A stretch of DNA of 64,000 nucleotides from Kiritimatiellia bacterium (GCA_028718125.1 JAQUMN010000017.1:8401-72400), one strand, 5' to 3'; shown: positions 31,612-46,335, numbered from the stretch's first letter. Made by a program: numbers and translations. Notes: generated from the letters alone by a model not told the origin.

Positions 31612-32442
31612 TTACCGCCGGCGGAACGCCAGCGACAGAATAAAAAACAACATGGCCCACAGGACAATGGTGGCGCCGGTGGCCGTCCCCCAATAGAATG
31701 AAGTTATCAATCCCAAAACGCCGGCCAGCGCGCTGATGACCACCGCGCCCAGCACGTAAGCTGCCATGTTGCGCGCCATGTTGCGCGAGGCCGCGGCCGG
31801 CACGATCAGCAGGGCGTTGATCACCAGCAGGCCGACCAGGGGAATGGTGATGGTCACCGCCAGCGCGACGATTACGGCAAAAAAAGTTTCCAGACGCCAG
31901 ACAGGAAATCCGCGCGCCTTGGCCAATGAGCGATTCAAACAGGCAAAAAATAGCGGGTTAAAAAAGGTCAGCCACACACCGGCCACCAATACGAGCAAAA
32001 GCACAAGCCGCAGGATCTCAAACGGGGTAATTGTCAGCAGATCGCCGATCAGGTAACGGGAATAACGCGCAAATCCTCCGCCCCGCGACAGCAGGACCAC
32101 GCCCAGCGCCACGGCAAACGCCATCATGAGCGCGATAATAGTATCGGTTGAAGCAGAACTGTAGCGGCGCAAAACGGAGACGAGGATGGCCAGCACAGTG
32201 GCAAAGGCCAGCATGGTCCAGAGCGGATCAGCCAGCCCCGCCAGCGCGCCGATGGCAATGCCCGTCAGGGCCGCATGCCCGATAGCGTCGGAAAAAAACG
32301 CCATCTGGTTGCTGATGACCAGGCATCCGATCAGCGCAAAGAGCGGCGCGATCAAAAGCACGGCCAGCAGGGCATTCTGCATGAACGTGAATTGCGCCCA
32401 CTCAAGCGGCAAATACGCGATGATGTGATAACACAATGTCAT
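31612..32442 (-). CDS. Metal ABC transporter permease (ZnuB/MntB/TroCD 'ABC-3' family)
   Basis: 276 aa with ~8 TM helices. It overlaps the upstream ATPase gene by 4 nt. Confidence 0.75.
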   Translation of the reverse strand: MTLCYHIIAYLPLEWAQFTFMQNALLAVLLIAPLFALIGCLVISNQMAFFSDAIGHAALTGIAIGALAGLADPLWTMLAFATVLAILVSVLRRYSSASTDTIIALMMAFAVALGVVLLSRGGGFARYSRYLIGDLLTITPFEILRLVLLLVLVAGVWLTFFNPLFFACLNRSLAKARGFPVWRLETFFAVIVALAVTITIPLVGLLVINALLIVPAAASRNMARNMAAYVLGAVVISALAGVLGLITSFYWGTATGATIVLWAMLFFILSLAFRRR

Positions 32443-33263
32443 GGATGGTGTTGCACCGGCTGCTCAAACCGGTTTCCCAGTTGTTGAATAGCCGCGTTGG
32501 TCAGGTCAATTCCGAAAGTCTGGCGGATGCACGGGCCCGCGAGCACTTCATGCGGCGATCCGTCGCATAGAATGGTGCGGTTCAAAAAAATCATACGGTC
32601 GGCAAAACGGGCCGCCGTCGGGATGTCGTGCGAAACAAGCAGGATCGAAAGATCGAAGGTCCGGCGCAATTCGGAAACCATGCGGTAGAAAAGGTCAATG
32701 CCCGCAGGATCCACGCCCGATACCGGCTCGTCCAGGAGCAGGAGGTCGGGAACCGGTATCAAGGCCAGGGCCAGCAGGACCCGCTGGAGCTGGCCGCAGG
32801 AGAGTTGGCCCAGGCGCTGGTCGAGCAGGGCATGGGCGTTGACCACGGAGAGCATGTCGGAAGCTTTCATGCGGATCGCGGCGGAATGGCCCAGCCAGAT
32901 CGGACGGCGCGCCAGGGCTCCGGCAAACAAATCCAACACGGTGACCGGCGCCAGGGGGTCAATATCGAGCTTCTGGGGAACATACCCGATCCGCGGATGA
33001 ATAAAGCGTTCTTCGCTGCTCGCGTGAACAAAATGGAGCGCTCCGGTATAGGGCAACTCGCCCAGCATGGCGCGGAACAGCGTGGTTTTCCCGGCGCCGT
33101 TTGGGCCAAGGAGCACGGTCAGTTCGCCGCAATGCACGTGCAGGTTGATGGCTTCCAGGATCACGCCCCCCCCAAGCTGCACGCCGAAGTTGATCAGCCG
33201 CGTGCAACATCCGCCGCAGGAGGACCCCGAGACGACTGACTCTTGTTTGAGTGCCGATATCAT
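32439..33263 (-). CDS. Metal ABC transporter ATP-binding protein (ZnuC-like)
   Basis: Walker A 'GPNGAGKTT', signature 'LSCGQLQR' and Walker B 'LLLLDEP'. Confidence 0.8.
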   Translation of the reverse strand: MISALKQESVVSGSSCGGCCTRLINFGVQLGGGVILEAINLHVHCGELTVLLGPNGAGKTTLFRAMLGELPYTGALHFVHASSEERFIHPRIGYVPQKLDIDPLAPVTVLDLFAGALARRPIWLGHSAAIRMKASDMLSVVNAHALLDQRLGQLSCGQLQRVLLALALIPVPDLLLLDEPVSGVDPAGIDLFYRMVSELRRTFDLSILLVSHDIPTAARFADRMIFLNRTILCDGSPHEVLAGPCIRQTFGIDLTNAAIQQLGNRFEQPVQHHP

Positions 33264-33537: not shown

Positions 33538-34416
33538 CTATTTACCGAGCGCCTGCTCCAGTGTCTGCAGGTTGGCCTGCATTATGGCAAGATAAGCGTC
33601 GGCCGTCATCGGGCCGGTGACCACGGGATCAAGGCGATACACGCTGGCGCCCGTTTCGCGGGCGATGGCGTCCGCCGCCTTGGCCGAATACTGGGGTTCG
33701 GCAAAAATGGCTTTGACGCCGGTCTTCTTCACAAGAGTTATGGCTTGGGCCAGCTCGCGGGCGCTCGGTTCCGAGCCCGGCTCGCGCTCGATCACGGCTA
33801 CTACAGTCAATCCGAATTCCCGGGCGAAGTAGGGGAAGGCTTCGTGAAAAGTGATGATGTCGCGGGTCTTGACGTTCTGTAACCCCGCGTGCATGGTCGC
33901 GCGGAGCGTTTCCAGTCTGGCAAGGTAAGCGGAAGCATTCTTTCGATACAAGTTTACGTGATCCGGATCGAGGCGCTCCAAGCCCGCGGCAATGTTCTCC
34001 ACCTGTTGCATGTGCAGTTTCACGCTGACCCACACGTGCGGATTGGCAACGCCCGCGGTGGACATTAAGGAAATTCCCTCGCTGGCCTGGATTAGCTTAA
34101 GCCTTGGGACCTGCTGGATGGCCTTATCCAGAAAAGTCTCCATGCCCGCCCCGTTGACAACGAAAATGTCTGCCTTCTCCAGTGTGACGAGGTCCCCCGG
34201 GGTCATCTGGTAATCATGCAGGCATCCCGTAAAAGGCCGGGTCATGTTTATCACCTCAACTCCGGGGATGTCCCGGGCCACATTGAGCGTTGCCAGGTAG
34301 ATGGGGTAAAACGAGGTGACGATTCTCAGTCCGGCTGCGTTTGCGCTGCCGGCCAGGGATAGAAGGCAGGCGGCAGCTATGGCCGGCCAATATCGGTAGA
34401 GCAACCCTGAATTCAT
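33538..34416 (-). CDS. Metal ABC transporter substrate-binding protein (ZnuA/TroA family)
   Basis: Start placed at 'MNSGLLYRYWPAIAAACLLSLAGSANA' (signal peptide). 'TSFYPIYLATLNVA' and the 'HVW' motif are typical. Confidence 0.7.
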   Translation of the reverse strand: MNSGLLYRYWPAIAAACLLSLAGSANAAGLRIVTSFYPIYLATLNVARDIPGVEVINMTRPFTGCLHDYQMTPGDLVTLEKADIFVVNGAGMETFLDKAIQQVPRLKLIQASEGISLMSTAGVANPHVWVSVKLHMQQVENIAAGLERLDPDHVNLYRKNASAYLARLETLRATMHAGLQNVKTRDIITFHEAFPYFAREFGLTVVAVIEREPGSEPSARELAQAITLVKKTGVKAIFAEPQYSAKAADAIARETGASVYRLDPVVTGPMTADAYLAIMQANLQTLEQALGK

Positions 34417-34632
34417 AAAGCCATACAATAAACGTATTGGCCGCAAAGGGACACAAAAAAATTCAAGAGTTGGAGTGGCCGAAAAGCTGATTGCCCTGCC
34501 TGACCGCCAAAAATTCTCGCTATGGCGCAACCATGTCGCTATGTTTAACAGACACATCAGGCTCGGTGCTTTGCCGGGTGCAGGCGCCCATTGAAAGTGG
34601 CGTGGAAAAGACAACAACCAGATAGAAGGAAA

Positions 34633-35886
34633 ATGAACATGTCCGTCAGCCGGCATGATCGGGATGTTTTAAGGCGGCTTGCGAGGCGAAAGGCTGAAAT
34701 CGCGGCTTTGCCCATTCAGCAGGTGCGCAGGAAAATGTGGACGCGCCTTAACCAGCTTGAAAAAGCCAGGCCCATGGTTTGGATATTTGAGGTGCCCTGG
34801 CACGAGATGAACGTGAATGACGAATTAACGCTTCAATGCGAGAGTGAGTTCTGCCGGAAATTTGAGTTCGGCCTGCGCAAAGAGCTATATCAATGGGACC
34901 ATATGCAGGGCGACATGGTGGTCCATCCGGTCATTCCGGTAAATCCGGTGGTGCAGGATACCGGCGTCGGGTTAGTCGAAGAGGTTGATGTTGTGCAGAC
35001 GGATACGGCCAGCGACGTTGTTTCCCGTCACTTTCACGTCCAAATTCAGAATGAAGATGATATCCGGAAAATTAAAATGCCCGAGGTCACGCTGGACCAG
35101 GACGCCTGGGATCGTAACTATAGCCTGGTCAACGGGATTTTTGACGGCATTATTCCCGTGGTGAAGACCGGCATCAACGGAACAACTATTGCCCCGTGGG
35201 ATTTTCTGGTCCGCCTGACGGGGGTTGACAACCTTCTCATGGATCTGAGTATGCGACCGGACTATGTGCACAAGCTCATTGACCGGATGACCCAGGCATG
35301 CATTTGCAGGCTGGAACAATACGAGGCCCTTAACCTTCTGGCGCTTAATAATGAAACGTGGCTAGGCGGCGGCCCTCAGTTCACGGATGAACTGCCGCAA
35401 GCGGACTGGAATCCCGCAAAGATCAGGCCGATTGACATGTGGGGGCGCACCATGTCGCAAATCTTCTCCGCGGTATCGCCGGCCATGCATGAGGAGTTTG
35501 CGCTCCAGTATGAATGCCGTTGGCTCAGTCGGTTCGGGCTGACGTATTACGGGTGCTGCGATCCGCTGGATAGAAAGGTCGGCATTCTGCGCAAGCACGT
35601 GCCGAACCTGCGGAAAATCTCGATGAGCCCGTGGATCAATCTCGACGTGGCGATTGAAAACGTCGGGACGGATTATGTGTTTTCGCTAAAAACCAGCCCG
35701 GCGGTCCTCGCCGAAAACACCTGGCATCCCGATGCCGTCCGGCGCGACCTGGAGCTGACGCTCAGCCGTCTTAAGGGGCTCCACGTGGAGATCATTATGA
35801 AGGACATCAGCACGGTCTGTTATAAACCGCAGCGCCTTTGGGAATGGGCGGAAATAGCAATGGCTGCAGCGGCCAAATACGCATGA
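34633..35886 (+). CDS. Hypothetical protein, possibly uroporphyrinogen-decarboxylase (URO-D/MtaA)-like TIM barrel
   Basis: SD 'AGGAAAATGAAC' precedes the ATG. The family call is a weak fold-level resemblance only. Confidence 0.35.
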   Translation: MNMSVSRHDRDVLRRLARRKAEIAALPIQQVRRKMWTRLNQLEKARPMVWIFEVPWHEMNVNDELTLQCESEFCRKFEFGLRKELYQWDHMQGDMVVHPVIPVNPVVQDTGVGLVEEVDVVQTDTASDVVSRHFHVQIQNEDDIRKIKMPEVTLDQDAWDRNYSLVNGIFDGIIPVVKTGINGTTIAPWDFLVRLTGVDNLLMDLSMRPDYVHKLIDRMTQACICRLEQYEALNLLALNNETWLGGGPQFTDELPQADWNPAKIRPIDMWGRTMSQIFSAVSPAMHEEFALQYECRWLSRFGLTYYGCCDPLDRKVGILRKHVPNLRKISMSPWINLDVAIENVGTDYVFSLKTSPAVLAENTWHPDAVRRDLELTLSRLKGLHVEIIMKDISTVCYKPQRLWEWAEIAMAAAAKYA

Positions 35887-40300: not shown

Positions 40301-41044
40301 TCAATGCGGGTGCAGGTGCCGCAGGCTGTGCGGGCGTTCCAGGCCGTGGGCCAGCATCAGGGCTTCGTCGTTCAGGAGTTCCACGGTCGGGCCTTCGGCC
40401 ATGACTTTCCCGTCGTCAAGTACGATCACGCGGGAACATAGCTCGACAACAAATTCCAAATCATGGGTGGCAATAATCTTGGTGTGCTTAAATGACGCGA
40501 GCAGTTCAATCAGGCGCCGACGGCCGCGTGGATCGAGATGCGCGGAAGGCTCGTCCATGACCAGGACATCGGGTGACATGGCCAGTACCGTGGCAATGGC
40601 CACGGCGCGTTTCTCGCCTGCCGAGAGCTTGTAAGGCGGGCGGTTTCTCAGATGAGACATACCCACCCGCTCCAGCGCCGAGACTACGCGATGTTCAATT
40701 TCATTCGGAGGCAGGCCGGCGTTCAAAGGGCCAAACGCAACATCCTCAAACACGGTTGGCATGAAAAGCTGGTCATCGGGGTCCTGGAAGACCATGCCGA
40801 CAGCGCGGCGCGCCGAAACAACCGTCGCGCGCGTCAGCGGCGCGTCGCCGATGCGCACTTCGCCGCGCGTGGGCGTCAAATAACCGTTCAAATGCAGGAG
40901 CAGCGTGGATTTGCCGGCCCCGTTGGCCCCGACCAGGGCCACCGATTCGCCATGCGTGATCCGGAAAGAAACGCCTTTCAGCACATCCGTGCCGTCGGGA
41001 TAGGTGAAATGCAAGTCGCGGACTTCAACAAGATGGTGGCTCAT
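40301..41044 (-). CDS. ECF-transporter ATPase component (NikO/CbiO)
   Basis: Walker A 'GANGAGKST', signature 'LSAGEKRAV' and Walker B 'VLVMDEP'. Start taken at 'MSHHLVEV', overlapping the upstream stop (ATGA) per the ORF track. Confidence 0.8.
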
Positions 41045-41877
41045 GAACCGCCTCCTGCCACCATACGTCCCAAGGCATTGGCGAGATTCCATATGCGAGC
41101 CACGGCAAAAAACGCCGTCCAACCCCCTATAAATGCCCAATCGGTCCACCGAAAGGAAGTCTGGCACAAAACCCGGATCTCGCCATTTCCGCCGCTGGCG
41201 GATCCGCCTACGGTGGAAAAACCGCGGGATACCATAGCGCGATAAACGCGATCCGCGCGATCCATGGAGCGCAGGAAAAGATGCCCCACGAGCGAGCCAT
41301 ACACGCGCAAGCGCAAAGACCGCGGTCCGGCGGAACGGAGTTCCATGCTGCGCATCATCCGGGCGCCTTCGTCGGCGACAACGAACAGGTAGCGGTAGAG
41401 GAACAGCAGTTGGACCACAAACACCTGCGGCACGCACATCCGTTCCAAACCCGCACCAAGCCGGTGAATGCCGGTGCAGGCTATCAGCGCCAGGGCCGCG
41501 CTGACCGTCAAAAAGAAGCGGAGCATGATCGAGGCGAACGAAAGCCACCCGCCCGAAATGCTCCATGCCCCAACGCTGGCGATCGTCTGGCGGTCCAGCA
41601 AAGGATTGAACATGCCTATGACCAATGCAAACGGCACGGCGATTAGAATTTTTCGAAAAATATATCCGAACGGAATCCGTCCCAATGCAAGCAATGTGAA
41701 CGGATAGAGAAAAAAAGGCATTAGGGCGGACACTTCATAACGCGGGAACGACATGACGACCACTATGAAAATCAGGGTTGTGATGACCTTGGCCCGAGCA
41801 TCGAGACGATGCACGGGCGTGTCCAGTCGCCCCAGTTCATCCATGCGGCCAATTTCAATCCATTGTCCTATTCCCAT
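41041..41877 (-). CDS. ECF-transporter transmembrane T component (NikQ/CbiQ)
   Basis: 278 aa, CbiQ-like membrane protein. Confidence 0.75.
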   Translation of the reverse strand: MGIGQWIEIGRMDELGRLDTPVHRLDARAKVITTLIFIVVVMSFPRYEVSALMPFFLYPFTLLALGRIPFGYIFRKILIAVPFALVIGMFNPLLDRQTIASVGAWSISGGWLSFASIMLRFFLTVSAALALIACTGIHRLGAGLERMCVPQVFVVQLLFLYRYLFVVADEGARMMRSMELRSAGPRSLRLRVYGSLVGHLFLRSMDRADRVYRAMVSRGFSTVGGSASGGNGEIRVLCQTSFRWTDWAFIGGWTAFFAVARIWNLANALGRMVAGGGS

Positions 41878-41886
41878 CCGGTTAAT

Positions 41887-42930
41887 TTATACTCCCGCGT
41901 GCCGCGCTTTCAAGGCGAAACCGATCAGGCCGGCCAAGCCCAGCGTGATCAGGCCGCCCGCAATGCCTGATAAGGACGTTCCGGCGCTGATGGCTGGCCA
42001 TGGTTCAGGCTCAGCCGCGGTTTTTTCCGCAGGCGCGGCTTCGGGTTCCGTGGATTTAAAACCATAGTCCGGCAGGAAGGCGGTTTTTTCCTGTATCCGG
42101 CCTAATCCCTTGTGCAAGTTGTCTTCCGTGCCGGAGACCTCTTCTTTACCGGAGACCTTGACGATGGACCATTCCAATCCGTCAGGGTGGGTCGAGGCAA
42201 ACCAGCTTGCGGCCCCGCCGACAATCACGGTGGCGATCAATAGACCGATCAAGACCGGCCGCAGGCTATTTTGCGATTCCTCGTCCGCTCGTGCCGCAAA
42301 CAGGGCTTCCGGCCGCGCTCGGGCTACAAATGCAACCACTGCGGCCGTTGCCAGGCCTTCCACTATGCCGATGGCCAGATGAATGGGCTGCATCAGCAGA
42401 ACAAAGGCGCCAAACGGCAGTTCCGAGATGCCGGAGGCCTTGGTCTCCAGCACGACGCCGAATGCGCCCAATTGCAGTCCCACGACAGCGGCGACAATTG
42501 CGGCGATCCATGCGCGCAGGGTGCCGTGCTCATCCCGGGCAATCGCACGGTAAATGAACGGATAGGCGATAAACGCGGGAAAAAAACCAAGATTGAAAAT
42601 ATTGCACCCCAGCGCCAGCAGGCCGCCATCGGCGAAGAAAAAAGCCTGCACCACCAGGACCGACGAGATCGCTAAAAAGGCGGCGTAGGGTCCTAACAGA
42701 ATCGTCAGAATCAGGCCGCCTCCCAGGTGTCCGCTCGAGCCCGTGCCGGGGATCGAAAAATTGATCATCATGGCCGCAAAGATAAACGCGCCAAGCACGC
42801 CCATCATCGGGACCAATTTATCGTTCATGGTTTGCTTGACTTTGCGCGCGCAATACGCGATCAGTCCGGCGGTTACAATCCACATCGTCCCGCCAACGGC
42901 GGGGTTAATCAAAGCATCGGCCATATGCAT
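41887..42930 (-). CDS. Nickel/cobalt ECF transporter substrate-capture component, CbiM/NikM fused to CbiN/NikN-like C-terminus
   Basis: N-terminus 'MHMADALINP' is characteristic of CbiM/NikM. The C-terminal extension carries the 'PDGLEW' NikN/L-like motif and a final TM helix. Confidence 0.75.
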   Translation of the reverse strand: MHMADALINPAVGGTMWIVTAGLIAYCARKVKQTMNDKLVPMMGVLGAFIFAAMMINFSIPGTGSSGHLGGGLILTILLGPYAAFLAISSVLVVQAFFFADGGLLALGCNIFNLGFFPAFIAYPFIYRAIARDEHGTLRAWIAAIVAAVVGLQLGAFGVVLETKASGISELPFGAFVLLMQPIHLAIGIVEGLATAAVVAFVARARPEALFAARADEESQNSLRPVLIGLLIATVIVGGAASWFASTHPDGLEWSIVKVSGKEEVSGTEDNLHKGLGRIQEKTAFLPDYGFKSTEPEAAPAEKTAAEPEPWPAISAGTSLSGIAGGLITLGLAGLIGFALKARHAGV

Positions 42931-42960: not shown

Positions 42961-43764
42961 CTACTTACTTTCTTCCTGTGCAAACCCGAATGTCCATGTC
43001 AAGCCGGCCGTTGCCGTGAAATCCGGCGCGTCACCGGCAATGCGCGAGCCGGCGGCGATGTCGGCGACCAGGCTGTCGAGAATGCTGTAGCGCAAACCGG
43101 TGTTGAACATGACGACGGTATTTACCCCGCGGCGCAACTCGTCTTCCGCATATACTTCACCCACCCACTGCAGGGGATCAACGATCTTGTAGTCGAACGC
43201 TAATCCGTAGTGCAGAATATCGCCTGCATCCTCATCCGCCGGTTCGCCGATCCAGGAATAACCGACGTTGATATGCCCGCCCATCTTCTCGCAAAAGGAT
43301 TTTGAAGCGATCCAGGTGAGATCGTAATCCGTTTTGCCGCTTCCCAATCCCTTGTCTTTGTCGGACGTGGGGAACTTGACCGCGGGAACTATGGCTTGGC
43401 GGGGCAACCACGTCGTTTCAACCCAAAACTGCCATTTTACGTTGACGACCAAATCGCCGATACCGTTCTCGGAAGAGGTGCATTCCCCGCCGCTGTTTTC
43501 GTCAATTTCGGTCCGTTCCTCGAATTGTCCGCCGAACCCGGCGCCGAGTTCCACAGAGGGGATGATGCCGCATCCCACCGCGAAGGGGACATCCCAGTGT
43601 TTGCACCCGGAATCTTTCTCATACCAGCCGCCGCCTTCTATTTTGAAATCCTTGAACTCCAGCGGATCGGCGTCGTCGATGATCAACGGCCGGGCGGCAA
43701 ATGCGCCGCTTGCCGCCAGGACTATGGCGGTAACCAAAACGCCGACTATTTTTCTCTCGCTCAT
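42961..43764 (-). CDS. Outer-membrane beta-barrel protein (MetA-pathway/'transporter' PF13557-like) heading the nik operon
   Basis: Signal peptide 'MSERKIVGVLVTAIVLAASGAFA', alternating amphipathic strands and a C-terminal '...TWTF' aromatic terminus. Confidence 0.6.
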   Translation of the reverse strand: MSERKIVGVLVTAIVLAASGAFAARPLIIDDADPLEFKDFKIEGGGWYEKDSGCKHWDVPFAVGCGIIPSVELGAGFGGQFEERTEIDENSGGECTSSENGIGDLVVNVKWQFWVETTWLPRQAIVPAVKFPTSDKDKGLGSGKTDYDLTWIASKSFCEKMGGHINVGYSWIGEPADEDAGDILHYGLAFDYKIVDPLQWVGEVYAEDELRRGVNTVVMFNTGLRYSILDSLVADIAAGSRIAGDAPDFTATAGLTWTFGFAQEESK

Positions 43765-43844
43765 GTTTCGCGCTCCTTTCGTGTTTTTGCGTCGGCAAAT
43801 CCTGGGTTGCGCGTTACGGTGTCCGGCCGACACTTACGGCGTCG

Positions 43845-43869
43845 TAATACGATTTGTAAAAACGTGTTA
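43845..43869. promoter_or_regulatory. Putative NikR operator 1 (TAATAC-N13-GTGTTA)
   Basis: A 6-N13-6 palindrome with one mismatch, lying inside the first copy of a ~70-bp direct repeat upstream of the OMP-nikMNQO operon. Confidence 0.4.
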
Positions 43870-43987
43870 TCAATAGACCGAAAAAAGCAGCCGACTTTAA
43901 TCGCGCATGACTTTAACTCCTTTCCCCATTGTTGAGGCGGCAACCGTTGTTTGGTCATGGTGGCGCTTGGCCACCCATACGGCGCCA

Positions 43988-44012
43988 TAATACGATTTAT
44001 AAATAAGTATTA
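43988..44012. promoter_or_regulatory. Putative NikR operator 2 (TAATAC-N13-GTATTA, perfect)
   Basis: A perfect 6-bp inverted repeat with a 13-nt AT-rich spacer, inside the second copy of the direct repeat and just downstream of the nikR stop. Confidence 0.45.
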
Positions 44013-44050
44013 CCGATAAACTAAAAAAACACCACCAACCGAATAACATA

Positions 44051-44464
44051 TTATTTCGATGCCTGGCCGGAGGCGGTGATTGTCAGGCCGCCATGCTTGA
44101 CGCCCCGCAGGGCGATCAGGCGGTCGGCCAGAACCTTTACCCGCGATGCGGGTCCGCGGACCATGATGACCTCCAGGCAGTTATCGTGGTCCAGGTGGAC
44201 GTGAGTTGTGCTGAGGATCAGGTCGTGGTCCTCGTGCTGCAAATCGGTCAAATGATCCTGCAATTTGTGTTGTTGATGTTCATAGGCCAGGGAGATCACG
44301 CCGACCACATTACCTTGCGCGCTGCGCCACTGTTCGTCCACCAGGTTCTTGCGGATCAGGTCGCGCACGGCTTCCGAACGGTTCTGATACTCATGCCGGC
44401 TGATAAACTGGTCGAAGGCGGCCAGCAGATCCTGCTCCAAGGCGGTGGAAAATCGGGTGATCAT
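44051..44464 (-). CDS. nikR: Nickel-responsive transcriptional regulator NikR
   Basis: N-terminal ribbon-helix-helix domain. The C-terminal ACT-like domain carries His/Cys nickel ligands ('HEHQQHKLQDH...THVHLDHDNCLEV'). Confidence 0.85.
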   Translation of the reverse strand: MITRFSTALEQDLLAAFDQFISRHEYQNRSEAVRDLIRKNLVDEQWRSAQGNVVGVISLAYEHQQHKLQDHLTDLQHEDHDLILSTTHVHLDHDNCLEVIMVRGPASRVKVLADRLIALRGVKHGGLTITASGQASK

Positions 44465-44536
44465 TGTAACACTATTGTTCCTTTCGTATTAATCTACGAC
44501 CCGGACACCGCCATGTCAAATAAAAAAACAAGAAAA

Positions 44537-44947
44537 TTACGGAGCCGGGTCCGGCGGGTTTTTAGGCGCGAACTGCTTGCAGGTATCTGTGGCTTCCACC
44601 TCCCGGTTGGATCGGCTACAACGCTGGAGGAAGGGGTTGACCACGTAATGGGCGCAATGGCGGCACAGCCGGCTGACCGTTTCGAGCACCTCCCGCTCGT
44701 CAAATACCTTGGGCGGCGGCGGCAGGTCCTGGCGCCCGAAGCCCGGCACAACTTTTTTTGCCTTGAACGAAACCGCGGCTTCGTCGGGAAATACATGGCC
44801 GCAGGCGGTGCAGGACAATGTTTCGCCCGCGCGCTTGAATCCCTCGTATACGGGTTCGCGTCTTAAAAGCGTGTCCTTCCCGCAGGACGAACACATGATG
44901 GCAACCGGCCGCGAACCCGTTTTGCGATCCATTTTTTCCATGGCCAT
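44537..44947 (-). CDS. Small Cys-rich zinc-ribbon protein (CxxC x2 plus CxHC...C), unknown function
   Basis: 136 aa. 'CSSCG...CTACGH' and 'CRHCAHYVVNPFLQRC' are present. It runs co-directionally 72 nt upstream of nikR. Confidence 0.45.
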   Translation of the reverse strand: MAMEKMDRKTGSRPVAIMCSSCGKDTLLRREPVYEGFKRAGETLSCTACGHVFPDEAAVSFKAKKVVPGFGRQDLPPPPKVFDEREVLETVSRLCRHCAHYVVNPFLQRCSRSNREVEATDTCKQFAPKNPPDPAP

Positions 44948-45153
44948 CAGTCTGGGAAAAAAGCGTTGTGAATGTCAAGAATGGAAATGCGCCGCGTTGG
45001 AAATGCGCCGCGGAGAAGAGTGATCCGGCTGTCGTTTTGTGCTTGCGATGGACGCCGGCCATGTTATGTTCTTTCATTTCTATTTAAATTACCGGTTTGC
45101 CTGGGTGAAGAGCTTCGGCAAAGATGGAATAGTATAAAAGAGGAACTGCTTGT

Positions 45154-46335
45154 ATGACAAAAGACGCCGTTCAGGGCAAATCGATTACATTTTCAATCGA
45201 GAAGAAGGCATGCGTGGTGCCGGAGCATCCGATCATTCCGTTCATTGAAGGCGACGGCACGGGGCCGGACATCTGGCGGGCTGCTGTGCGTGTGTTGGAT
45301 GGAGCCGTCGCCAAAGCCTACGGCGGGCGGCGGCAGATCTGCTGGCGGGAATTGCTGGCGGGCGAAAAAGCGTTCAAACAGACCGGCAACTGGCTGCCGG
45401 ACGAAACGGTTGCCGCCTTCAAGCAATATCTGGTCGGCATCAAGGGGCCGCTCACCACCCCGATCGGCGGCGGGCATCGCAGTTTAAACGTCGCCTTGCG
45501 CCGGCTGCTCGATCTTTACGTTTGCCTGCGGCCGGTGCGCTGGTTCGAGGGCGTCCCGAGCCCTGTCAAGGAACCCGGCAAGGTGGATATGGTCGTGTTC
45601 CGCGAAAACACGGAAGACGTTTATGCCGGCTTGGAAGTCAGTGCCGGTAGCCAGCAAGCTCAAAAACTCATTGGCTTCCTGAAAACAGAATTCGGCTGGA
45701 ACATTCGTCCGGATTCGGGCATCGGCGTCAAGCCCATCAGCGAGACCTGCAGCAAACGCCTGGTCCGGGCCGCCATCGAGTATGCCATCCAAAACAAGCG
45801 CCGAAGTGTGACGCTCGTCCACAAGGGCAATATCCAGAAATTTACGGAGGGCGCCTTCCTGGCCTGGGGCTATGAAGTGGCCAAAGAATATAGCGGCCGC
45901 ATTGCGGTCAAAGACGCTATAGCGGACATCTTCTTCCAGCAGGCCCTGACCCGGCCCGGGGAATTCGATGTTATCGCCACCATGAATCTGAACGGGGACT
46001 ACATGTCCGATGCGCTGGCGGCGCAAGTCGGCGGCATTGGCATTGCCCCGGGCGGCAACATCAACTATCAGACCGGGCACGCTATTTTCGAGGCTACGCA
46101 CGGTACGGCGCCTAAGTATGCCGGCCAGGACAAGGTCAACCCCGGCTCCGTAATCCTCTCCGGCGAAATGATGTTCCGCTACATGGGCTGGGCGGAAGCG
46201 GCCGACCTGATTATCCGCGGCCTCGGCGAGGCCATCCGGCGCCGGAAAGTGACCTACGATTTCCACCGGCTGATGGACCATGCGACGCTGTTAAAATGCT
46301 CGGAATTTGCCGACGAAATCATAACCCACATGTAA
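45154..46335 (+). CDS. icd: Isocitrate dehydrogenase (NADP-type, homodimeric IDH/IMDH family)
   Basis: '[14 protein letters not shown]', '[19 protein letters not shown]' and '[25 protein letters not shown]' motifs. Confidence 0.85.

Follow-up and report, generated by a model that had tools for sequence, protein, structure and literature searches.

Three copies of the dyad-symmetric box TAAYAC-N13-GTRTTA, one in front of nikR and two between nikR and a nickel-uptake operon, are very probably NikR operators of a Kiritimatiellia-like bacterium. Through them, Ni-loaded NikR would shut off its own gene as well as the operon OMP-nik(MN)QO, the latter at two serial modules. The boxes combine dyad geometry, consensus half-sites, an encoded NikR, a location at promoters and a phylogenetic footprint; from knowledge of the family we infer binding by NikR, its dependence on nickel and repression. 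They are an ordinary regulatory element of a known NikR site type, in a little-studied phylum. The original prediction had proposed tandem NikR operators, and conserved operator-like boxes across relatives bear this part out; the novel motif class and the cooperative or two-threshold control that were proposed with it are not sustained. General understanding of NikR regulation is unchanged by these sites. For the Kiritimatiellia (PVC lineage) they provide a well-supported regulon seed, the predicted regulon consisting of nikR, the OMP-Nik(MN)QO importer and TonB-dependent receptors; a literature search found no paper mentioning NikR in Kiritimatiellia. All coordinates refer to the window, i.e. 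the whole analysed stretch of 64,000 nucleotides (64 kb), if not stated otherwise.

Organization of the nikR locus

The genes nikR, OMP, nik(MN), nikQ and nikO follow one another in this order on the minus strand:

44051-44464, minus strand: nikR, 137 aa
43765-44050, minus strand: nikR-OMP intergenic region, 286 nt
42961-43764, minus strand: OMP gene, first gene of the operon (Pfam PF13557 Phenol_MetA_deg, 5.5e-16)
41887-42930, minus strand: nik(MN) fusion, CbiM + PDGLE/CbiN-like (Pfam CbiM 8.9e-60, PDGLE 2.3e-30)
41041-41877, minus strand: nikQ, CbiQ-type T component (Pfam CbiQ 9.7e-30; TIGR02454 above cutoff)
40301-41026, minus strand: nikO, ECF/CbiO-type ATPase (Pfam ABC_tran 7.4e-33; TIGR01166 cbiO above cutoff)

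These Pfam and NCBIfam identities agree with the earlier description of nikR beside an OMP-nikMN-Q-O operon. NikR matches Pfam NikR_C (1.5e-32) as well as RHH_1 and reaches 178.7 bits on the NikR equivalog NCBIfam NF003381 (cutoff 105). In an ungapped alignment with E. coli NikR (1q5v/2hzv), residues H77, H88, H90 and C96 fall on the known E. coli Ni ligands H76, H87, H89 and C95. The protein is a full family member, and all four high-affinity Ni ligands are conserved. NCBIfam CbiM matches stay below their cutoffs, and it is from its context that the CbiMNQO-type transporter is presumably specific for Ni, not Co. The synteny of the OMP gene is kept in L001, L004, L005, L009, L018, L022-L024, L026-L028 and L032. 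Directly 5' of nikR lies a Cys-rich, Zn-ribbon-like ORF of 136 aa (44537-44947, minus strand) with sub-threshold Pfam matches only, which is found in many relatives with 71-80% identity.

Three boxes in the window

An exact search of the 64-kb window for TAAYAC-N13-GTRTTA gives three matches, compared to 0.00 expected from 100 dinucleotide-preserving shuffles, and four result when one mismatch is allowed (0.07 expected). The exact matches are:

44467-44491: predicted operator O_R, minus-strand reading TAATAC-GAAAGGAACAATA-GTGTTA (motif match)
43988-44012: predicted operator O_A, perfect palindrome TAATAC-N13-GTATTA
43845-43869: predicted operator O_B, minus-strand reading TAACAC-N13-GTATTA

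The latter two had been described before, with correct sequences and correct ranges (43845-43869 and 43988-44012), but O_R, located behind the -10 hexamer of nikR and ahead of its start codon, had been overlooked. On the coding strand its context reads TAGAT-TAATAC-GAAAGGAACAATA-GTGTTA-CA-ATG: the first T is shared with the -10 hexamer, the spacer holds the nikR ribosome-binding site and the box ends 2 nt from the ATG. Read as TAAYA-N15-TRTTA, all three boxes have half-site centres 20 bp apart, and the H. pylori-derived pattern TRWYA-N15-TRWYA picks O_R, O_A and O_B only in the 64-kb window.

The fourth, one-mismatch site, TAACAC-N13-GTGTTG at 32429-32453, sits on the ATPase/permease gene junction of a ZnuABC-like metal transporter operon (ZnuA 33538-34656; ABC_tran 32439-33263; ABC-3 31612-32442). 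Since its mismatch falls on the otherwise invariant outer T, this match was rejected as a box and is probably due to chance.

Relation to known NikR boxes

The half-sites and spacer had been taken to define a new, lineage-specific motif. This has to be withdrawn, since a 7-mer reading fits the signal GTAACAC-[N13]-GTGTTAC and a 5-mer reading fits the H. pylori TRWYA dyad. The E. coli nikABCDE operator is reportedly GTATGA-N16-TCATAC, i.e. GTATGAT-N14-ATCATAC. Similar to E. coli, a dyad-symmetric operator of 27-28 bp would lie on the promoter of a nickel importer and NikR carries the same Ni ligands. The half-site sequence differs, however, and the E. coli operator is 1 bp longer and single; E. 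coli nikR is located downstream of its target, whereas nikR here is located upstream and has its own predicted operator.

For delta-proteobacteria a reversed NikR signal, GTAACAC-[N13/14]-GTGTTAC, was predicted computationally (Rodionov et al. 2004, Genome Biol 5:R90, PMC545781), namely at Desulfotalea psychrophila nikMLKQO, at a second cluster with two tandem sites and at D. vulgaris nikK. The enterobacterial box written as 7-mers, GTATGAT-[N13/14]-ATCATAC, has the same overall length (PMC545781). In this notation the present sites read (G)TAAYAC-N13-GTRTTA(C) and match GTAACAC-N13-GTGTTAC at 5-6 of 7 positions per half-site. With the reversed signal they share the half-site core, the orientation, the 13-nt spacer and the total length of 27 bp, as well as the position 5' of ECF-type nickel transporter genes, Nik(M..)QO, adjacent to nikR. 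In contrast to it, position 5 of the 7-mer is mostly T (GTAATAC; 64 T vs 30 C in 94 half-sites), the outermost G/C is weakly conserved, and the host is a Kiritimatiellia-like PVC bacterium, to judge from its 95%-identical, syntenic counterparts in Kiritimatiellaeota MAGs.

In H. pylori, footprinting gave a consensus whose half-sites are separated by a 15-nt spacer, or by 20 nt from centre to centre (Vannini et al. 2017, PMC5385501), with operators of the form TRTTA-N15-TAWTA / TRWYA dyad (PMC5385501). Read as 5-mers, TAAYA-N15-TRTTA, the present sites satisfy TRWYA exactly in both halves and agree in spacer and centre distance. A further likeness is the predicted combination of autoregulation with control of TonB-dependent receptors and inner-membrane transport. 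The H. pylori sites are degenerate, AT-rich and footprinted, whereas the sites described here are predicted and far more uniform (TAAYAC/GTRTTA); furthermore, H. pylori NikR has an N-terminal arm which, according to alignment offsets, the 137-aa NikR lacks.

Taken together, forward and reversed delta-proteobacterial boxes, H. pylori boxes and the present sites suggest one self-complementary pattern, TRWYA-N15-TRWYA. Because the degenerate TRWYA is its own reverse complement, such a pattern would, in our interpretation, explain both half-site orientations in delta-proteobacteria. If true, this would be in keeping with recognition of each half-site by a two-fold-symmetric RHH domain.

Conservation in relatives

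NikR-anchored scans gave 40 loci, the close ones having a NikR 69-95% identical to that of the window; these are Kiritimatiellia or 'Verrucomicrobiota' MAGs and metagenome contigs with the synteny Zn-ribbon gene, nikR, OMP, nik(MN)QO and convergent feoB. In all close loci (~25 Kiritimatiellia loci) but L006, a box stops 2 nt short of the nikR ATG, and a second box follows ~40 nt past the last nikR codon wherever the downstream gene is present. The comparison of orthologous intergenic regions, proposed earlier as a check, was carried out for these ~25 loci and showed half-sites nearly invariant at the same positions with drifting spacers. Of 94 pooled half-sites, all have T1, A3 and A5, 92 have A2 and 90 have C6; the base at position 4 is a pyrimidine throughout (64 T, 30 C), and 85 show an A two bases farther in. 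Half-site positions carry a mean information of 1.86-1.96 bits, as against 1.28 bits for spacer positions and ~1.07-1.09 bits for flanking ones. The relatives behind these values are mostly close ones, so that their sequences are non-independent samples. Locus L006 (5900-6411), with a nikR 89% identical to the window's and the Zn-ribbon gene upstream, has neither a downstream nik operon nor a box upstream of nikR and acts as a natural negative control.

The regulon was read from nikR-linked loci. There, the box precedes nikR, OMP-nik(MN)QO, an OMP-CbiM-type variant operon (L004) and TonB-dependent receptor genes. The last group comprises L002 (5651-7683), L003, L019 (672-2741), L025, L034 and L007 (7612-8683), in the last of which the receptor box is 4.9 kb away from nikR. 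These sites suggest NikR-controlled outer-membrane nickel uptake, as in H. pylori. Within the clade there is a second nikR paralogue locus, in which the box and an alpha-type leader (see below) precede a TonB-dependent receptor gene and not the OMP-nik operon; L001 and L002 come from the same MAG.

Outside the clade, boxes of the form GTA(A/G)CAC-N13-GTG(T/C)TAC accompany 50%-identical nikR genes of Bacteroidota and one Chromatiales MAG, and in L013 and L014 they lie directly 5' of TonB-dependent receptors. Calditrichaceae-type nikR genes (about 50% identical) have the forward box GTGTTAC-N13-ATAACAC 70-91 nt upstream of nikR (L010 5931-5957; L036 1224-1250; L038 1199-1225). The Bacteroidota/Chromatiales boxes are thus reversed relative to the Calditrichaceae type, though the RHH beta-strand motif, L(I/V)RFGVSLP, is very similar.

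Binding of the boxes by another metal regulator, e.g. a Fur/Zur-family protein, would have a point of contact in the 3' part of the site-1 spacer together with its right half-site (TAAATCGTATT), which is similar to a single half of the Zur box predicted for G. sulfurreducens, TAAATCGTAAT-n-ATTACGATTTA (PMC545781). The likeness concerns one half only, has no palindromic partner, and the corresponding spacer segment is absent from O_R. Moreover, the boxes track nikR at every locus, precede nikR itself and vanish 5' of nikR in L006, which has no nik operon; box geometry and half-sites are of NikR type. We regard a different regulator as most improbable.

It was also considered that the palindromes act as RNA hairpins, be it in attenuation, processing or masking of a ribosome-binding site, and are not protein-binding DNA. 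All three boxes are situated in or near transcribed leaders, the nikR ribosome-binding site is in the 'loop' of O_R, and a stem of 6-7 bp can be drawn for O_A and O_R. These box stems are nevertheless marginal (-4.2 and -2.5 kcal/mol), and that of O_B is unformed (-1.6 kcal/mol, empty centroid); the z-scores are -1.4, -1.6 and, for O_B, +0.6. Across 47 sites the combinations of position 4 and its partner are T/A 20, T/G 20, C/A 4 and C/G 3, so a C stands opposite A, a mismatch in the sense RNA, in four of the seven C cases, O_B among them, without covariation. Rfam has no match for the region of the boxes at E <= 10, and the invariant half-site bases are those common to published NikR boxes. 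A role as RNA hairpins is therefore very unlikely, and recognition of the boxes as DNA by NikR remains the preferred reading.

Candidate promoters, terminator-like hairpin and proposed mechanism

The following signals were located around the boxes:

44491-44519, minus strand: nikR promoter, -35 TTGACA (44519-44514), 17-nt spacer, -10 TAGATT (44496-44491)
44016-44011 and 43992-43987: candidate promoter on O_A, TCGGTA-N18-TATTAT
43873-43868 and 43849-43844: candidate promoter on O_B, TTGATA-N18-TATTAC, hexamers read straight from the sequence
44023-44078, minus strand: intrinsic-terminator-like hairpin across the nikR stop, with a U7 tract (44029-44023) behind it

The nikR promoter, which O_R abuts, scores 10/12 in a sigma-70-like consensus scan, and its TTGACA plus a TAGATT-like hexamer are kept in about 25 relatives. 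For the operon, we infer OMP promoter positions at O_A and O_B. In a relaxed scan the O_A-type register is the sole sigma-70-like arrangement recurring in a fixed position across units: the -35 hexamer (TCGG followed by TA) overlaps the left half-site, and the -10 hexamer TATTAT is the right half-site plus one base. The O_B candidate is in the same register. Both are weak, with 8-9/12 consensus positions, and the consensus scan that found the nikR promoter did not report OMP promoters at O_A or O_B. For these two reasons the operon may instead be served by read-through from the nikR promoter, with NikR as a roadblock. The hairpin at the nikR stop folds with -31.6 kcal/mol for a 96-nt stretch (z = -1.95), and its T-run is part of the repeated unit. 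It went unflagged at 44023-44078 in a simple terminator scan. Similar hairpins with a T-run occur in relatives with covarying arms, GGTCAA:TTGACC (L003) vs GGCCAA:TTGGCC (L026), which points to nikR and the uptake operon being transcribed as separate units.

With promoters at O_A and O_B, the mechanism would proceed as follows. When nickel is plentiful, a Ni(II)-loaded NikR tetramer would place its two DNA-binding domains on TAAYA(C) and (G)TRTTA, whose centres, 20 bp or two helical turns apart, could be spanned by one tetramer. At O_R, which extends from the -10 hexamer of nikR as far as its start codon, binding would result in negative autoregulation. In each 143-bp copy a candidate -35/-10 pair is covered by the operator, O_A or O_B, so that Ni-NikR would occlude both promoters, and any transcript begun at the upstream module would in addition have to run through the downstream operator. 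Two independently repressed promoters, rather than cooperative binding, are the most economical reading of this arrangement.

The tandem 143-bp duplication

Between nikR and the OMP gene a direct repeat of ~70 bp had been noted. Its real extent is the whole 143-bp nikR-to-OMP intergenic unit, arranged in tandem, in accordance with a common offset of 143-145 bp in repeat families D1, D4 and D10. In a global alignment the units 44050-43908 and 43907-43765 are identical at 91/143 positions, and each consists of a T-run, a box, a GC-rich leader, a ribosome-binding site and an ATG:

43908-44050, minus strand: unit A ('alpha'), adjoining nikR, with T-run, operator, alpha-type leader and ribosome-binding site
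43765-43907, minus strand: unit B ('beta'), adjoining the OMP gene, with T-run, operator, beta-type leader and ribosome-binding site
43897-43908, minus strand: junction mini-ORF ATG CGC GAT TAA, the unit A start codon fused to a copy of the post-nikR-stop sequence

No further copy of either unit was found in the 64-kb window, and a dispersed repeat or MITE was rejected on this basis. For reading the junction, L023, L024, L032 and the double loci L004, L018 and L023 served as references. At the mini-ORF, the unit A start codon is joined to a copy of the sequence that usually follows the nikR stop (TA-ATGCGCGATT...); the sequence past this start, ATG-CGCGATT...GTTGGCTGTATTTTTTTAG, copies the normal post-stop TA-ATGCGCGATTCTGTTGGCTGTATTTTTTTAG of L023, L024 and L032. 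The duplication thus took in all of the intergenic unit, from stop to start, in head-to-tail arrangement. A function of the mini-ORF as leader peptide was discarded: in the four double lineages it has 3, 3, 5 and 9 codons, and because of this variable length it is seen as a by-product of the duplication junction and not as a conserved peptide.

Double units are present in four other loci, L018, L023, L004 and L028, corresponding to only three further lineages because L004 and L028 share identical intergenic sequence. The sites are positioned at +40/+184 (L018), +41/+201 (L023) and +39/+181 (L004/L028), the second box of L004/L028 having an N12 instead of an N13 spacer. In L004 (5947-7698, = L028) the double unit stands before the same OMP (84% identical), which is followed by a different CbiM-type component, 37% identical and without PDGLE fusion. 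A single unit is found in eight relatives. The leaders fall into two types, alpha (...GGTTGCCGCCTCAACAA...GGAAAGGAG) and beta (...GATTTGCCGACGCAACAACACGAAAGGAG); double loci have alpha plus beta, single loci either type. Between genomes, beta copies are 76-87% and alpha copies 64-69% identical, compared to 53-66% for the two copies within one genome. Since orthologous copies are closer than within-genome copies, the duplication is old and predates the split of these lineages. Such an old duplicated whole-promoter module offers a natural case for the keeping and losing of tandem promoter/operator duplications.

Both boxes agree 12/12 with TAAYAC/GTRTTA in all double lineages, i.e. in the window, L018, L023 and L004/L028, and this perfection despite the divergence argues for selection on both. 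It has to be weighed against the idea that only O_B is functional and unit A is a decaying relic of the duplication, its box kept by chance or recent ancestry. Pointing in this direction are the faster divergence of alpha copies between genomes (64-69% against 76-87% identity for beta), the end of unit A in a junk mini-ORF of variable length, an insertion of ~20 nt in unit A of L023, a badly eroded unit A leader in L004 and the sufficiency of a single unit in eight relatives. The half-sites of the alpha box are, however, perfect in all double lineages within surroundings that are ~30-45% diverged; by our own arithmetic, the probability of a 12/12 box kept by chance in two lineages at 31% divergence is about 0.01. 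Furthermore, L001 and the TonB-receptor genes are preceded by no unit other than an alpha-type one, which shows that the alpha module works in other places. A relic is thus unlikely, and we retain two repressed modules.

Duplication of the sites had also been read as cooperative or two-threshold repression, e.g. by tetramer-tetramer contacts or DNA looping. The retention of two conserved operators together in the window and three further lineages, as well as the two tandem NikR boxes of Desulfotalea, would agree with this, and O_A as a perfect palindrome and O_B with its C variant could differ in affinity. The centre-to-centre distance of the operators, however, is 143 bp in the window, 144 in L018, 160 in L023 and 142 in L004/L028, i.e. 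13.5 to 15.2 helical turns, and no helical phasing is conserved across the four double lineages. Because the spacing varies in this way (142-160 bp, unphased), cooperative or two-threshold repression is unsupported; the duplication is module-wide and present in some relatives, many having one operator. In the E. coli NikR-DNA complex (2HZV) both DNA-binding domains of a tetramer are engaged at a single operator, which would leave none for looping. Position 4 is C or T regardless of its partner in the 47 sites, so the C variant of O_B lies within the normal consensus. We consider cooperative or two-threshold control improbable compared to two independently repressed promoters.

A conserved leader helix

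In this clade a conserved GC-rich leader comes after every NikR box; in the two tandem units it contains a predicted helix:

43936-43975, minus strand: unit A leader stem, GGTGGC (43975-43970) with GCCGCC (43941-43936)
43791-43831, minus strand: unit B leader stem, GTCGGC (43831-43826) with GCCGAC (43796-43791)

RNAalifold predicts 6 bp (columns 20-25 with 55-60 of alignment A1; 95.6% paired, 19 sequences). Independent compensatory changes occur in three pairs: GC<->UA between alpha and beta, seen also between the window's two stems as G-C in unit A and U-A in unit B; GC->AU in L004_B; and CG->UA in L034. The helix is located 3' of the boxes at both OMP and TonB-receptor genes. Rfam, compared with 43000-45200 at E <= 10, gave no relevant match, neither a B12 nor a NiCo riboswitch, and L005 and L032 lack the long-range part of the helix. 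That the conserved leader exerts a second, RNA-level control on nickel-uptake mRNAs, e.g. as a metal- or sRNA-responsive switch, is a speculative and unlikely extension of the repression by NikR proposed above. If it were true, the diverged alpha and beta modules would give the operon two differently tuned inputs. The 5' arm of the helix can also pair locally upstream (CCGCC:GGCGG), so that alternative structures are possible.
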